Positions 6,369 to 59,696 of a DNA stretch of 64,000 nucleotides are shown here, piece after piece. The stretch comes from Octopus vulgaris (Eukaryota): positions 64,604,001 through 64,668,000 of the forward strand of contig OX597828.1 in the NCBI GenBank assembly GCA_951406725.2. Reading direction: 5' to 3'. The position numbers and the translations under genes were made by a program. The notes under the pieces were generated by a model. That model saw only the letters and a list, made by a program, of their open reading frames with translations. It did not search any database and was not told the DNA's origin. Each line of letters opens with the position of its first letter. Position 1 is the first letter of the stretch.

Positions 6369-9300
6369 GATACACCGGGGGACGTTTAAGATGTAAGAAC
6401 GATAAAACAGAGCTCCGAAATCTATCCGCAAACATCGAAAACAAGGACGTCGTATGGAGCCAAAGATTTACTAACAAAGGATTATTCTGTATACGAGTAA
6501 GTAATACTCATTGAAATTTATTACTATTTTCGAAACGAAATGATGTATTTTGACTCGATATCATCTCCACCTCTAACACAACACATGTAAACATGCGTGA
6601 TACATTACGATCCATCAACACCAGATCATCCCCGACCCCAAACACCATGTACAAAGGAACTACGAAGAAATTAAATACCACCGATATTATTCAACCCAAG
6701 AATAACAATCGGGAGGTACGTACTTTAAACTTACAACACAAAATGTACGAAAAACTACACGTGCAAAACAATGTGACAACAGAAATGAACGGACTGGTAC
6801 CCTACGAAAATGACGACCGTCAAAATGATGGGCCGGACGTTGTTCCTCATGTCCCGCAAATAAAACCCAAAAGACATAAATGGACATGTGAGGAATACTT
6901 TTCTATCCTACACGCATACTTCACAGCAGTGCTCTACCCAAAAAATGAAAACACAACAACACATACATATAAAATATGGAAGGAAAATAACATAAATATA
7001 GACTTGGATACAGCAATGGACCCTAATAAACTAGCTAACGTACGAAGATACATTCTCAACGCAAAAAAATATCAGAAATAGAAATAGAACATCTAAAAGA
7101 AAAAATACACCAGGAAAATGTAGATAGAAGCCACACAACAATGCCCAATAATATAAACACTGAACAGTAAAACACGAAGACAAACGTAACATTCCCGACA
7201 AACACGAGGTAAACAAAAAACAACAAACCCAGACCGTAAGGATGCATAATAATACACGACAAACAGCAAACCAAAACACGGCAAACAAACATATAAATAA
7301 GAAAGAAAGCGACACAAATCTAAAACCTGGAAACAACGAAGGGGAGCCTAATGATTATGATAATATAAAAAGTAAAATAATCAAAGAACTGAAAACCACA
7401 GAGCTCAAAATGGACCACCGACCATACCTCCCAAAAATCAAAATAGACGAAACAACAACACCAATTATAAACAGCATAAACCTAGCCGTCACGGAACTAA
7501 TAGCCACTGAAACAAAAAACGATATCACTGAGCTAAATGACTTAATATACGCAGCAGCCACTGCAGCCACAAAAGAAGCTGGATATTCACTCACACCCAT
7601 CCAAACAGGAGTACCACCACCCAAACAAACTCTGTGGATAAATAACATCCAAAACAAAATGCAAAAAATGAGAAAAGATCTGTCGATTCTTAATGAAATC
7701 AGTAGACAATCAACGCTACTGAGCAACAAAAAGAAAACAAAAATACTCCGCAAATATAACATCACAGAAAAAGATTTACCTGAGATAAAAGAAAAGCTGA
7801 AGCAAGATATCCTTGCCAAAGCACAAAGGATCCGCCGGTACGAGAAACGCCAGCGCTTCTTTGAACAAAACAAAAAGTTCAACTCCAACCCCAAAAAGTT
7901 CTACCAAGAACTTGGCAAAAATAAAATAGAAATCACTGCAGCACCAACGGTAGATGAAGTGGAAGAATTCTGGAGAGAAATATGGTCGGCGAACGAACAA
8001 CCAAAAAAATAGTATTAAAACAACAAACTCAGCATCTGAGCAACTTTGGACCCCCATAACAACTGAAGAGGTCACCCAGGCACTGCAAAGACTAAGCAAT
8101 TGGAAGGCACCTGGGCATGACAAGATCCCCAACTTCTGGTTGAAATATCTAACAGGAATGCACAAAAAGCTTGCTGAAAACTTTAACAACATACTAGCAG
8201 AGCCAGAGACAATGCCTGAATGGCTCACGAAGGGGAAAACCATCATAATTCCCAAATCAAATGAGACAGCAAAACCAGAAAACTACAGGCCTATAACCTG
8301 TCTCCCTACAATGTACAAGGCATTTACTGCAGTAATATTGCAAAGATTGAACAAGCACCTGGACGAAAACAACCTGTTTCCAGAAGAGCAGAAAGGATGC
8401 TGCAAAGGCTCATATGGCTGTAAAGATCAAGTAATGATTAATAAAGCCATAACTGAAGACAGCCACAGAAAGAAGAAAGGCCTCAGTATGGCCTGGATCG
8501 ACTACAAAAGGCGTTTGATAGCATCCCCCACACATGGATCCTCGAAACACTAGCCATGAACAAAGTTGCACCAACAATTATAAAATACATAGGACACTAT
8601 ATGAATAAATGGCAGACAGTGCTACAGCTCCAAACAAAAGAGGGACTTGTGAAAACCAAAGCCATCCCCATTAGAAGAGGAATATTCCAGGGAGATACCC
8701 TCTCTCCACTCCTTTTCTGCTTGGCACTGTCACCTCTATCAGATATGCTAAACAGAACTGGATGCGGATATAAATGTTACGGCAAAACGATCAGCCACCT
8801 TTTATATATGGATGACCTAAAACTATACGCTACAAATGACAAACCGCTGGAAACACTACTAAAGACAGTTCATGGATTTACCAAAGAAATAGATATGAAA
8901 TTTGGATTAGAAAAATGCGCCAAAGTAACCATGGAAAGAGGAAAACTAGTTAAGAGTAGCAACATCACACTCGATAAAACCAATGAAATAAAAGAATTAG
9001 ACCAAAGCCAAACTTACAAATACTTAGGAATCCATGAACTAGATAAGACACAACACACACAAATTTAAGAGAAAATAAAAAAAGAATATTATAGACGAGT
9101 TAGATCAATACTGAAAACACAGCTCAATGCTAAAAACAAGATAATAGGTATCAAAACTTTAGCCGTCCCAGTTATAAGTTACAGCTACAATATCCTTAAC
9201 TGGACACTAAATGAACTGACCAAAATAGATAGGAAAACAAGAAAAATAATGACAGGATCTAGGATGCATCACCCAAAATCTGACATAGAAAGGCTATATA

Positions 9301-9700
9301 TACAACGTATAGAAGGTGCCAGAGGCCTTATACAGCTGGAAAACTACTATAAAATAACCACCATAGGACTGCAAAAATATCTACTTCAGAAGGAAGGAAA
9401 ACTGATACAAATAGCGGCAAAACACGAGCAAAACAAAAAAAACTGTTCTCAGTATTTAAGGAAGCTGACAAATACAAACAAGAAATCATACCACCTAACA
9501 AATATGAAGAAGAAGAAGAAGAAGAAGATGAAGAAACAACAAAAGCTATAAAACAAATGAAGTCCAAACCAAAATTAGAACAGCAACGAACCATGATAAA
9601 ACGATGGCAAGAAAAGCCCCTTCATGGTAAATACTGGACTAAACTAAATGCAAAAGAAATAGATAAAGAAAAATCCCAACAATGGCTAAGAAACTCAGAC
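6369..9700 (+). mobile_element. R4/Dong-like (RLE) non-LTR retrotransposon, subfamily a; apparently 5'-complete, frameshifted, 3'-truncated
   Basis: ORF pieces 6593-7081 (N-terminal RHKWTCEEY..AYF motif), 7242-8012, 7954-8553 (NWKAPGHD, YRPITCLPTMYK, WIDYK), 8556-9068 (GIFQGDTLSPLLF, LLYMDDLKL, YKYLG) and 9249-9551 (HPKSDIERLY). It begins directly after (TAA)n. Confidence 0.92.
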
Positions 9701-18508: not shown

Positions 18509-19345
18509 AAGAAGAAGAAGAAGAATGAAAGAAATAGACGAGAGAAAAATCACAGCAATGGTTGAGAAGCTCAGGACTCAAAGCAGAGACAGAGGGATTT
18601 TTAATTGCAGCACAAGACCAAAGCCTCCCCACTAGAAATTACCAAAAACATATAATGAAAAGAAACATAGCAAGTAACCGCAGATTATATGGAGATGGAC
18701 AAGAGCAATAAATCATATTATCTCTGACTGCCCAGTCCTGGCTAAGAAGGAATATATTCGCAGACACGACAGAGTTGGGACCTTCATACAATGGAAGCTA
18801 TACTAACACTATGGAATAACAACAGAAAAAGATGGTATAGGCACACGCCAGAAAAGGTCACAGAAAACGAGAAAGCAACCATACTATGAGATATGCCAAT
18901 ACACACGGATAGAGAAATTAAGTCCAATAGGCCAGATATAGTTGTCAGAGATCATGAAGGAAAAAAATGCTTTGTAATTGATGTATCAATACCAGCAGGT
19001 GACAACGTGTCTCTAAAAGAAATGGAGAAACTCTCAAAATACAAAGACCTGGAAATGGAGGTAACCAGAATGTAGAATCTGAAAACAGAAACAATTCCTA
19101 TCATAGTAGGTGCATTAGGCATGATAAAAAAATATTCAGACAAATACGTAACAAAAATACCAGGACTTACAAACACATATAACATACAGAAAATTGCACT
19201 ACTTGGGCACTGCCCACATCCTACGCAAAACACTTTCAATACAGTAACCATAAGAGTATCACAGCAGACCATAGCACATACCTAAGGCACACAGAGCTGC
19301 GCTCGGTAGTGAAGTGAAAGCACGCTATAAAAATAAAACTACTGA
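18481..19345 (+). mobile_element. R4/Dong-like subfamily a 3' fragment (decayed CCHC, RLE endonuclease, 3'UTR)
   Basis: Peptides GLKAETEGFLIAAQDQSLPTRNY and NRPDIVVRD..VIDVSIP..EKLSKYKDL (PD..D..K RLE motif). It overlaps the end of the 6369-9700 copy (QQWLR) and is followed by (TAA)n. Confidence 0.9.
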
Positions 19346-19348
19346 ATA

Positions 19349-19415
<67 letters not shown>

Positions 19416-19417
<2 letters not shown>

Positions 19418-19971
19418 GCCCTGATGCAGTACCAGGCAGTGGCTCAAATGGCTTCTGATCTTAACTGATTTGAAGTGTTATCATGTACATTGTTTTGTCT
19501 TGGTATAAAAGATGGGCTACAGCAAATATTCTGCCCAATACCACAGATTTGCTTGTCAGTTGTTTGACCTTAACCAGTTGAGCATGTCCCTTAGTGGCTG
19601 ACGATATGTGCATCTCTGATCACGAGCAGAAGTAGTGGGGGAGCATCATAGCCATGTGTTGAGAGGGATTCTTTGGGGTTTGAATAGTTCACCTCTGGAA
19701 ACATGGGTGGTTCTTTCAACATCCTTAAACAACCCTTATTCAGGGACCGTTTGAGTGGGATGAGCTACTCAACCTGAAGAAAATTCTAACTGGGCCCCAC
19801 CTGCAAGGTCATGTGCTGTTTATCTTGATATGAGATCACCATGTCGCGCACATATGGTTGTGATGCATGTGCCTGGTGTACCTTTATCAGACGGGTAGTC
19901 ATGATGGGTATATTGGGCTTCGTATATTTTACCCCAGTGTCACTTTGATGGCATGAACTGCTCTCTCACTC
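19416..19971 (+). mobile_element. ORF-less ~556-bp interspersed element ('element X') inserted in (TAA)n
   Basis: A second colinear copy with the same 5' and 3' ends lies at 58744-59327. Both start ATGCCCTGATGCAGTACC and end CTGCT.CTCA.TC + (AAT)n. Strand is inferred from tail polarity. Confidence 0.85.
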
Positions 19972-20012
<41 letters not shown>

Positions 20013-20038
20013 TAATAATGATGATGATGATGATGATG

Positions 20039-20112
<74 letters not shown>

Positions 20113-20114
20113 AA

Positions 20115-21224
20115 ATGCATAGAATGCACCACCCTAAGGCAGATACAGAACGACTTTATCTGCCAAGAAAAGAGGGAGGCCGTGGACTTTTACAACTGGC
20201 AATAACAATGAAGATTGCTACAATTGGCCTAGACACCTACCTGAAAAACTCTGAGTACTGGATGTTAAAACTTGTCTCAAAACATGAAAACAAGAAAGCA
20301 TCATACTCAGTAACAAAACAGGCAAAGGAATATCTAAGTGAATTCCGAATACAACAAATTTCGGAATTAGAGATAGACATACAAGAAACAGGCACAGAAA
20401 AAGCTAAGCGCATGAAAACCCGTGCTAAATCTGCGGCCTTAGATATTCTGAATGATAAATGGCAAGAAAAACCTCTCTATGGCAAATACCCAAAGAGAGC
20501 AAATAATACAGATGTTGACAAAGCCCTGACCCATCAATGGCTAATGGCCTCTGGCTTAAAATCTGAAACAGAGGGGTTTATCATAGCAGCTCAAGATCAA
20601 TGCCTACCAACAAGAAACTACCAGGCCAACATATTAAAGATCAGAAGCAGTCCAACGTGTCGTGTATGCCAGCAACAAAATGAAACCATTGACCATGTGG
20701 TCTCCAAGTGCAGTCTTCTAGCGCCTACAGAGTATCTCAACAGACACTATAGAGCTGCACAATATATTCACTGGGTAATCTACAAAAACCTGGATTTGCC
20801 CCATGAAAAAAACTGGTGTGAACACAAACCACCCCCAGTGCTTGAAAATGACCACATCTCACTCCTCTGGAACTTCACCATTCAAACTGACAGAAAGATA
20901 GATGCAAATAGGCCAGACATCATATTGAAAGACTTCAAACAAAGAACATGCCTCCTCATTGATATGACTGTCCCAATCGATATAAACGTATCTGTCAAGA
21001 CCTACCAAAAACTGAGCAAATATAAAGATCTTGAAATAGAAATCAGCAAAATGTGGAACCTGAAGACTAAAACAATACCTGTTGTCATAGGTGCCCTGGG
21101 AATGATAGCAAAATGGGCTGATAGCTACCTAACTCAGATACCAGGAAACCCCAAAATGGCAGAAATTCAAAAGATAGTGCTCATGGGAACTGCTCATATC
21201 CTACGCAAAATACTTTCTATGTAA
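20115..21224 (+). CDS. C-terminal part of an RLE retrotransposon protein (thumb/linker, CCHC knuckle, restriction-like endonuclease); TE-encoded, 5'-truncated
   Basis: RLYLPRKEGGRGL, CRVCQQQNETIDHVVSKC, ANRPDIILKD..LIDMTVP..KLSKYKDL, IPVVIGALG. Confidence 0.85.
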   Translation: MHRMHHPKADTERLYLPRKEGGRGLLQLAITMKIATIGLDTYLKNSEYWMLKLVSKHENKKASYSVTKQAKEYLSEFRIQQISELEIDIQETGTEKAKRMKTRAKSAALDILNDKWQEKPLYGKYPKRANNTDVDKALTHQWLMASGLKSETEGFIIAAQDQCLPTRNYQANILKIRSSPTCRVCQQQNETIDHVVSKCSLLAPTEYLNRHYRAAQYIHWVIYKNLDLPHEKNWCEHKPPPVLENDHISLLWNFTIQTDRKIDANRPDIILKDFKQRTCLLIDMTVPIDINVSVKTYQKLSKYKDLEIEISKMWNLKTKTIPVVIGALGMIAKWADSYLTQIPGNPKMAEIQKIVLMGTAHILRKILSM

Positions 21225-21439
21225 TCTCAAGGTTTAAAACAAACATAATTTTCGGTTTAAAAAAAAATTATTTATTTATTTTTTTTAGACATTCATTAGT
21301 ACAACACCAAAACCTCCCCACCCCAAATATATGGCACACTAGGCATAACAACAACATGAAATCCAACCTGTTGTCTCTTGAGGTCTCTGGGTGAGACTTG
21401 GAGCCAACTTGTACAAATATAAAGCAAAAGTCAAACATA

Positions 21440-21440
<1 letters not shown>
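20115..21440 (+). mobile_element. R4/Dong-like subfamily b, 5'-truncated
   Basis: Open 369-aa frame plus a ~215-bp 3'UTR, flanked by (TAA)/(TGA)n on the left and (TAA)n on the right. Confidence 0.93.
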
Positions 21441-58313: not shown

Positions 58314-58642
58314 CGTATACCTAATTAATTTTATCTCATCTCAGTCTTCCATACATTCTATATACAAAGATAAAATTTTGTATATGGACTTGGACGTGAA
58401 GAATTGATGTAGCCATGATGTTCGGGTGATCTGATGAGCTAGCTTTCTTTATCTTCAGTGATTTGTAAATATATGCTTAACATACATATATATCCTAGGG
58501 CCCCGATAATTACACGTATAAACCTGAAATCTTAACCATTATGCTATATGCCCACGAGATTATAGCGTAATGGTTAAGAGCGCGGGCTACTAACCTCAAG
58601 ATTGCGAGTTCAATTCCAGGCAGTGCCTTTAATAAATAATAA

Positions 58643-58698
<56 letters not shown>

Positions 58699-58743
58699 AT
58701 AATAACAATAATAATAACAACAACAACAACAACAACAACAGCA

Positions 58744-59327
58744 ATGTCCTGATGCAGTACCAAGCAGTGGCTATGCCCTGATGCAGTACCAGGCGGGGGC
58801 TCTCATGGCTTCTGATCTTAACTGATTGGAAGTGTTATCATGTACATTGTTTTGTCTTGGTATATATGATGAGCTACAGCAAATATTCTGCTCAATACCA
58901 CAGATTTGTTTGTCAGTTGTTTGACCTTAACCAGTTGAGCATGTCCCTTAGTGGCTGACGATATGCGCATCTTTGATCACGAGCAGAAGTAGTGGGGGAG
59001 CATCATAGACGTGTGTTGAAAGGAATTCTTAGAGGTTTGGATAATTCAACTTTGGAAACATGGGTCGTTCGTTCAACATCCTTAAACAATCCTTATTCAG
59101 GGACCTTTTGAGCGGGATGGGCTACTCGACCAGAAGAAAATTCTAACTGGGCCCCACCTGCAAGGTCATGTGCTGTTTATCATGATATGAGATCACCATG
59201 TCGCGCACATATGGCTGTGGTGCATGTGCCTGGTGTACTCTTATCAGACGGGTAGTCATGATGGGTATACTGGGCTTCGTATATTTTACCCCAGTGTCAC
59301 TTTGATGGCATACACTGCTACTCATTC
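58744..59327 (+). mobile_element. Element X, second copy, with its first 29 bp duplicated
   Basis: Colinear with 19416-19971; ATGTCCTGATGCAGTACCAAGCAGTGGCT directly precedes ATGCCCTGATGCAGTACCAGGC. Confidence 0.9.
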
Positions 59328-59410
59328 AATAATAATAATAACAACAGCAACATCAGCGAAAAGAATACCTTAGGAATGAAAACCCAGGGCTGGGTTCAAA
59401 ATTCTACCAG

Positions 59411-59456
59411 GACACCTGATGATGGCTGGAGAGTAAATCCGCCGAAATGTTGTGGC
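59411..59456 (+). ncRNA. Minimal type-I hammerhead ribozyme-like motif, probably degenerate
   Basis: CAC-CUGAUGA-U-GGC(U)GGA-GAGUAAA-UCC-GCC-GAAA-UG-UU-GUG: core boxes, stem II and a short stem I are present; stem III is reduced as in Penelope-type minimal hammerheads. Confidence 0.55.
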
Positions 59457-59696
59457 AACAACAAACAAGATGCGGACACGTAGTCGTCCAATGTAAATAA
59501 TGTGAATAAATCTTACGATGTTATCAGCCTCATGTATGCAAACTTGATCAAGGTATGCACTTCGACAATTGGTAGTTAAAAGGTGTTGCCGAAGGGATAT
59601 GATGCGACATTCAAAGGCATTTTGGATCGATGTTAAACCTCTGCCGCCTTGTTTTCATTTTAGGTAGAAGCGGTCTATGTATGTATGTATGTATAC

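Follow-up and report, generated by a model that had tools for sequence, protein, structure and literature searches.

The window analysed here is a 64,000-nucleotide stretch of the Octopus vulgaris genome, which comprises 2.8 Gb in 227 contigs and is rich in microsatellites, SINEs, and LINEs. Two copies of a short repeat, referred to as element X, are found in the window (Table 1). As an earlier reading made from the sequence only had described, the two copies are colinear, share the same polarity, and lie between AAT-type tracts. Copy 1 is flanked by the 3' end of a Dong-type LINE and by another Dong fragment, with AAT tracts between them. Copy 2 is preceded by a second occurrence of the first 29 nt of X, also described earlier. 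The sequence-only reading counted this repeat as a third independent 5' boundary; judging from the head repeats found in both X and Dong-A, it is most likely part of one insertion event. Element X has no open reading frame, again as first described: the longest stop-free stretch is 59 aa, and the longest ORF beginning with ATG is 50 aa.

Two further arrangements were seen. Copy 2 lies inside the internal AAT tract of a repeat whose head is tRNA-like and whose body contains a hammerhead core (window 58548-59480). Elsewhere in the genome, a Dong family D element, X, a full-length Dong-A, and an older Dong-A are stacked in one AAT array with a single polarity (L091:1-10000).

Table 1. Coordinates of element X, its parts, and neighbouring or related features (positions in the window unless a locus is named)
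Feature	Position	Strand	Remarks
Broken, 3'-incomplete Dong-A LINE, 5' end in AAT tract	6369..9700	+	candidate carrier family; right limit approximate
Broken, 5'-truncated Dong-A LINE 3' fragment (endonuclease region and 3' UTR)	18526..19344	+	same array as copy 1; left limit approximate
Upstream (AAT)n target tract of copy 1	19345..19415	+	directly behind Dong-A 3' end
Element X copy 1, full length (556 nt), young	19416..19971	+	98-99% identity to best 39 other genomic copies
Predicted self-contained 5' RNA domain (X 1-102; hairpin 32-70)	19416..19517	+	consensus pair probabilities 0.88-0.99; prediction only, no covariation
Zone of clustered 5' truncations (X 70-100)	19485..19515	+	
Segment X 103-272, also carried by MITE-like family Y	19518..19687	+	
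Predicted 3' hairpin (X 456-503), 53 nt before AAT tract	19871..19918	+	pair probabilities 0.97-1.0
Downstream (AAT)n/(GAT)n tract of copy 1	19972..20114	+	
5'-truncated Dong family C fragment (369 aa open frame and 3' UTR)	20115..21440	+	same array as copy 1
Upstream TAG/TAA/CAA tract of copy 2	58643..58743	+	
Partial head repeat (first 29 nt of X) before copy 2	58744..58772	+	
Element X copy 2, older subfamily	58773..59327	+	93% identical to copy 1 over 547 nt
Bulged hairpin in Dong 3' UTRs	L066:554-596, L091:8342-8384, L128:5545-5587, L198:1334-1376, L206:2747-2789		

Copy Number, Age, and Distribution

Element X is a real, abundant, and partly young family that is non-coding, dispersed, and present in no fewer than 22,000 copies. 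When one mismatch is tolerated, a 22-mer from the 3' end has 22,275 matches in the genome and a 22-mer from the 5' end has 16,030, while the reversed control of each has none. In 80 evenly spaced 10-kb stretches (800 kb), eight matches to X cover 3,334 of the 800,000 bases, and six of the eight start at positions 1-13. Extrapolation from these eight matches gives approximately 28,000 copies (95% range 12,000-55,000), and the same sample puts the share of X at approximately 0.4% of the genome. The family comprises several subfamilies, and divergence from the consensus ranges from 0.2% to 20% in a biased set of 213 copies. Between 79 and 94% of X words are present in 14 public runs that are non-RNA or unlabelled and carry five organism labels. 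The corresponding figure for six metatranscriptomes is 4-23%; run X15 yields one contig at depth 3.4, which does not amount to evidence of expression.

Ends, Truncation, and Target

Where does element X begin and end? End statistics were drawn from the first 30 exact pattern matches on contig C1 for each motif, which were not selected for length; the two samples overlap partly. The top matches of searches with full-length X are biased towards completeness and were excluded. In the sample anchored at the 3' end, all 30 copies reach position 550 or beyond; 14 of them start at positions 1-14, 16 are 5'-truncated with starts at 37-348, and none runs past position 1 into other sequence or an ORF. 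In the sample anchored at the 5' end, 29 of 30 copies start at 1-14, AAT precedes 27, and 26 extend as far as the 3' end. Where X is joined to partial heads, broken copies, or non-target DNA, it likewise resumes at A1, and an added G was found at none of 85 junctions. The 3' end of X is fixed, whereas the 5' end is a hard limit at A1 and not a constant. The proposal that both ends are fixed therefore stands for the 3' end only; a defined 5' end exists in the sense of a limit at position 1, and about half of the copies are ordinary 5' truncations.

The targeting of microsatellites, proposed from the two copies in the window, is borne out by the 3'-anchored sample, in which AAT flanks are present on the right in 29 of 30 copies and on the left in 25, compared with 1.1% of random 60-nt windows. 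Among 3' ends with an exact 13-mer at all loci (n = 149), 145 lie in AAT, two in mixed tracts, two in neither, and none in ATT. One copy outside this count (L308, identical with L049) has (GAA)n on both sides. Because of this copy, the (AAT)n that follows X is probably target DNA and not a tail belonging to the element. AAT is also found in front of truncated copies, and its presence on both sides therefore indicates targeting rather than tailing. One-sided truncation with target sequence at the new junction is the mark of target-primed reverse transcription; in X, one-sided truncation with AAT at the new junction fixes the RNA strand.

The truncations are not evenly spread: 11 of 35 AAT-flanked truncations fall at positions 70-100 (scan p ~0.001 against a uniform spread). 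This cluster fits a block of the enzyme by the predicted 5' domain, but a U-rich tract in the same place explains it equally well. One copy has an inverted 5' part ahead of position 97 (L271). Among 93 full 5' ends, a script counted tandem partial heads in front of at least 8; it missed cases such as L017, where there are at least 12 tandem heads.

Dong LINEs and Their Footprints

We infer the Dong/R4 label of the LINEs in this genome from their architecture, their target, and the literature. About ten Dong families were seen here; an octopus annotation lists 51 Dong-R4 consensus sequences and five recently active families (PMC13282606), and Dong-R4 elements are described as abundant in octopuses (PMC8967140, PMC9115989). 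Among the potential carriers, family D is very young, with many open frames of 1235 aa that contain one RVT_1 domain and have R2 proteins as their best solved relatives. Its 5' UTR is long and AT-rich, with a variable start (L321-L330).

The insertion footprints of X (target, polarity, truncation rate, and tandem heads) match those of the Dong-type LINEs of the same genome, albeit in small samples, which agrees with the earlier assignment of X to Dong machinery. The polarity of X in AAT is that of all Dong families seen. Both X and Dong-A also occur in GAA tracts (L308 and L153, respectively). Copies that reach 556 nt make up 14 of 30 for X, 12 of 32 for Dong-A, 5 of 12 for Dong-D, and 2 of 4 for Dong-C, with short loci limiting the counts. 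Dong-A, which was found via its N-terminal region, has a fixed 5' end, with one head motif at the start in 26 of 30 loci, and its head is repeated in tandem in 11 of 30 loci by eye (13 of 25 in a loose script count). By eye, the recurrent AAT-adjacent ends in the loci belong to X, Dong families, and SINEs.

Is there a sequence link between X and a LINE? The search for an autonomous LINE sharing either end of X, proposed with the original description, returned none: X resembles neither the 5' ends of Dong A, C, and D nor ten groups of 3' UTR (lowest p 0.075) nor family J (p 0.25-0.34). A resemblance of the last hairpin of X to the 3' UTR of family J lacked statistical significance and was dropped. 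Among the tblastx matches listed, none lies outside X and no coding remnant is seen, and no LINE joins the last 110 nt of X among the best-supported loose ends of contigs from public runs.

A bulged hairpin recurs in several Dong 3' UTR families, 30-37 nt ahead of the AAT tract; its stem sequence differs among them, and it is a candidate recognition signal. The hairpin common to the 3' UTRs of Dong A, D, E, and F has no motif match in X, and the likeness is positional only. In one locus, an internally deleted Dong-A was seen once (L182:2607-3240, minus strand), in which a 478 nt 5' part is joined to a 121 nt 3' end; it is possibly a SIDE-like product of an R4 element.

Loose ends did reveal a different relationship. 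Family Y, which is MITE-like, ~490 bp long, flanked by TA, and bounded by long inverted ends (L231-L260, e.g., L242:1120-1610), carries 170 nt of X (positions 103-272) with 96% consensus identity and has at least 768 copies, counted as matches to one motif. Both CpG sites of this segment have decayed in Y, which makes a genomic copy of X the most likely source of the piece. One locus holds a Y/X chimera (L194).

Tests for Promoter, Ribozyme, and Class

Which class of element does X belong to? Its many dispersed copies without an ORF, its complete 3' ends, and its variable 5' truncation fit a non-autonomous non-LTR retroposon. ARAGORN found no tRNA in X. No B box is present on either strand and A-box-like matches are loose only, in line with the absence of Pol III A and B boxes reported earlier; runs of four T are present internally at 78, 334, and 512. 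A SINE in the strict sense was rejected, as neither a head derived from tRNA, 7SL, 5S, or snRNA nor a set of Pol III A and B boxes was found in X. A similarity of 10 nt between X 17-26 and a neighbouring tRNA-type SINE was seen by eye. The two ends of X are not complementary, which confirms that terminal inverted repeats are lacking; this and the one-sided truncation argue against a MITE or DNA transposon. A TATA-like word at X 89-96 was discarded as a promoter because it cannot account for a start at position 1.

Self-cleavage had been put forward as one source of the 5' end, and it has no support from Rfam, HDV-type descriptor, or hammerhead searches. Rfam gave no match at gathering score in the window and only three chance-level bacterial matches with X (E 0.08-9). 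No hammerhead core (three stems in any order) was found on either strand of X in a search whose control recovered 6 of 9 hammerheads of the neighbouring repeat, and X was therefore rejected as a retrozyme or hammerhead element. A strict HDV-like descriptor, for which there was no positive control, had no match in X. The relaxed descriptor, likewise without a positive control, gave none in the consensus, none in copy 1, and four in copy 2, but 37.5% of shuffles matched. Nor did the HDV-like descriptor, again without a positive control, match the 5' end of Dong-A (window 6369-6600, L141-L170), unlike silkworm Dong. The first nucleotide of X is A; in HDV-like ribozymes it is usually G.

RNA Structure

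The plus strand of X folds somewhat better than its shuffles (z -1.68, with 6 of 100 as good), compared with z 0.15 for the minus strand. Two 3' stems had been pointed out in the first description: GTGTAC/GGGTATA is upheld, with pair probabilities of 0.97-0.999, while GCACAT/ATGTGC has probability 0 in the consensus ensemble. In the predicted 3' hairpin (X 456-503), pairing is kept by common variants, and compensatory change is rare. A covariation check on the copy alignment, also suggested there, gave no excess over controls: the score is at shuffle level (0.068 versus 0.067, with 73 of 500 shuffles as high), at low power, with 36 diverse copies out of 102 eligible. Double-change cells alone came near significance (22 of 500) and derive mostly from one pair, and tolerated changes in the stems are not above the unpaired background. 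Two seemingly favourable results were set aside: a count of 21 of 24 pair-compatible changes, which is circular, and a z of -3.6 for X 176-520, which is one of 12 windows and was picked post hoc.

Comparison with Known Elements

SINE-like elements of Entamoeba (EhSINE1, EdSINE1, and R4-N1_ED, with the carriers EhLINE1 and R4-1_ED) resemble X in being short and non-coding, in having no identified small-RNA precursor, and in their R4-type LINE carrier, which X likely has as well (PMC2996970, PMC3747384). They have ~70 bp of 3' end in common with the LINE, whereas X has no detectable shared tail; they prefer T-rich sites with no fixed target, whereas X targets (AAT)n; and they number in the hundreds (393 EhSINE1), compared with more than 22,000 copies of X in an animal genome (PMC2996970). 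The non-tRNA, SINE-like class to which X had been assigned is not new, since a published table already gives such passengers of R4-clade LINEs in Entamoeba (PMC3747384). The R2 SIDEs of Drosophila are another close parallel: SIDEs and X are both ~530-560 nt long, without an ORF, site-specific, and defined at the 5' end, and SIDEs are moved by a restriction-like-endonuclease LINE, as X probably is (PMC3414825). SIDEs still carry R2's HDV-like ribozyme and 3' UTR (64% and 81% identity), neither of which was found in X (PMC3414825). The makers of bipartite elements named by Kojima in 2018 are RTE, Ingi, Vingi, and R2 only (PMC5786205).

Sadhu of Arabidopsis and SVA are LINE-carried retroposons that are neither SINEs nor deleted LINEs, as X probably is too, and Sadhu also encodes no protein and has no recognisable promoter (PMC4494074). 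The carrier of SVA is L1, and in that source neither SVA nor Sadhu is described as targeted, whereas X is microsatellite-targeted and likely to be R4-carried (PMC4494074). Dong of Bombyx mori belongs to the R4 clade and shares with X a TAA-repeat target and a defined 5' junction; it was assayed with TAA repeats upstream. In contrast to X, it is autonomous. It self-cleaves at the 5' junction by an HDV-like ribozyme, a fold that was not found in X with a descriptor lacking a positive control (PMC3774820). The listings in the literature searched describe no animal Dong passenger. X probably belongs with the LINE-carried retroposons without a small-RNA head, and the octopus library may well already contain it without a name, as an unclassified SINE or unknown repeat.

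Origin and Mobilisation

How is X copied? The footprints are what is observed; from them we infer transcription, a promoter, and a carrier. X is most likely a non-autonomous, non-coding retroposon of 556 nt in (AAT)n, for which Dong (R4-clade) LINEs of the same genome probably supply the reverse transcriptase and restriction-like endonuclease. An RNA starting at A1 would be made, most likely from a start site within X. An internal Pol II-type start has about an even chance of being the origin of this 5' end, cleavage of a read-through transcript is a clearly weaker candidate, and atypical Pol III transcription is weaker still. The Dong protein would bind the 3' part of X by shape and/or by read-through (AAU)n and not by shared sequence, nick the AAT tract, and prime at the last base of X. 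Reverse transcription would stop early in about half of the events, often at 70-100, and repeated attempts to start the second strand would leave the partial heads. Against carriage by Dong stand the lack of a sequence link between X and the sampled Dong 5' ends, 3' UTR groups, or family J, and the covariation at shuffle level. Moreover, R2 is described as a stringent reader of its 3' UTR (PMC3414825), which makes a passenger that lacks a common tail unexpected.

An alternative explanation for the missing link is that X is an internally deleted, bipartite derivative, similar to a SIDE, of an unsampled or extinct Dong family, and that its ends were once LINE ends. The SIDEs of R2 offer a precedent, being ~529 bp long, 64% and 81% identical to R2 at the two ends, and of no known derivation in between (PMC3414825), and Dong-A makes such deletions, as seen once in L182. 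Only three 5' ends and approximately ten 3' ends of Dong were sampled, and X has diverged by up to 20%, old enough for a likeness to fade. Yet X matches none of the sampled ends and has no coding remnant by tblastx, and no recurrent LINE junction appears among the loose ends listed, although the MITE junction did; such an origin is unlikely. The same low probability attaches to the idea that X arose independently and captured the R4 enzyme without borrowing sequence, with its own 5' end released from AAT read-through by an unrecognised RNA element in the first 100 nt, and with recognition via a hairpin mimic or (AAU)n read-through alone.

The absence of a sequence link to Dong would also suit a carrier from another LINE clade with TAA-type tails (RTE or I), or a microsatellite-targeting Tx1 element; X and Dong would then have only the tracts in common. 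TAA repeats terminate I elements (PMC3747384), microsatellites form the tails of RTE (PMC9115989), and the Tx1-type Kibi and Koshi target microsatellites (PMC4494074). This is improbable in view of the AAT on both sides, even before truncated copies, which indicates targeting and not tailing; of the recurrent AAT-adjacent ends, which by eye are those of X, Dong families, and SINEs; and of the head repeats of X, which match those of Dong-A. That X is simply the long 3' UTR of a LINE, present as plain truncated pieces, is hardly credible. Sixteen of 30 copies are indeed truncated at scattered positions, but none extends past position 1, and 29 of 30 5'-anchored copies start at 1-14, with AAT upstream in 27, which refutes this reading for the sampled copies; junctions to non-target DNA also begin at A1. 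The sequence-only reading had named scattered 5' ends extending into an ORF, or flanks other than AAT, as signs against its proposal; the limit at position 1 and the AAT-rich flanks in the 30 3'-anchored copies are the opposite.

Implications

The known passengers of restriction-like-endonuclease LINEs, as described in the sources cited, share ends with their carriers; X apparently does not, yet it has reached more than 22,000 copies and is partly young. As a natural template of 556 nt carried by Dong, X would set the minimum that an RNA must offer the Dong enzyme, a point relevant to the stringency of site-specific enzymes. It also raises the issue of what defines a 5' end when neither a tRNA promoter nor an HDV ribozyme is there to do so, and the many copies make the questions of both template needs and the 5' end testable. 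If the origin of X should prove to be independent, R4/Dong enzymes would be undemanding in the templates that they read, and foreign RNA could be written into microsatellites by them.
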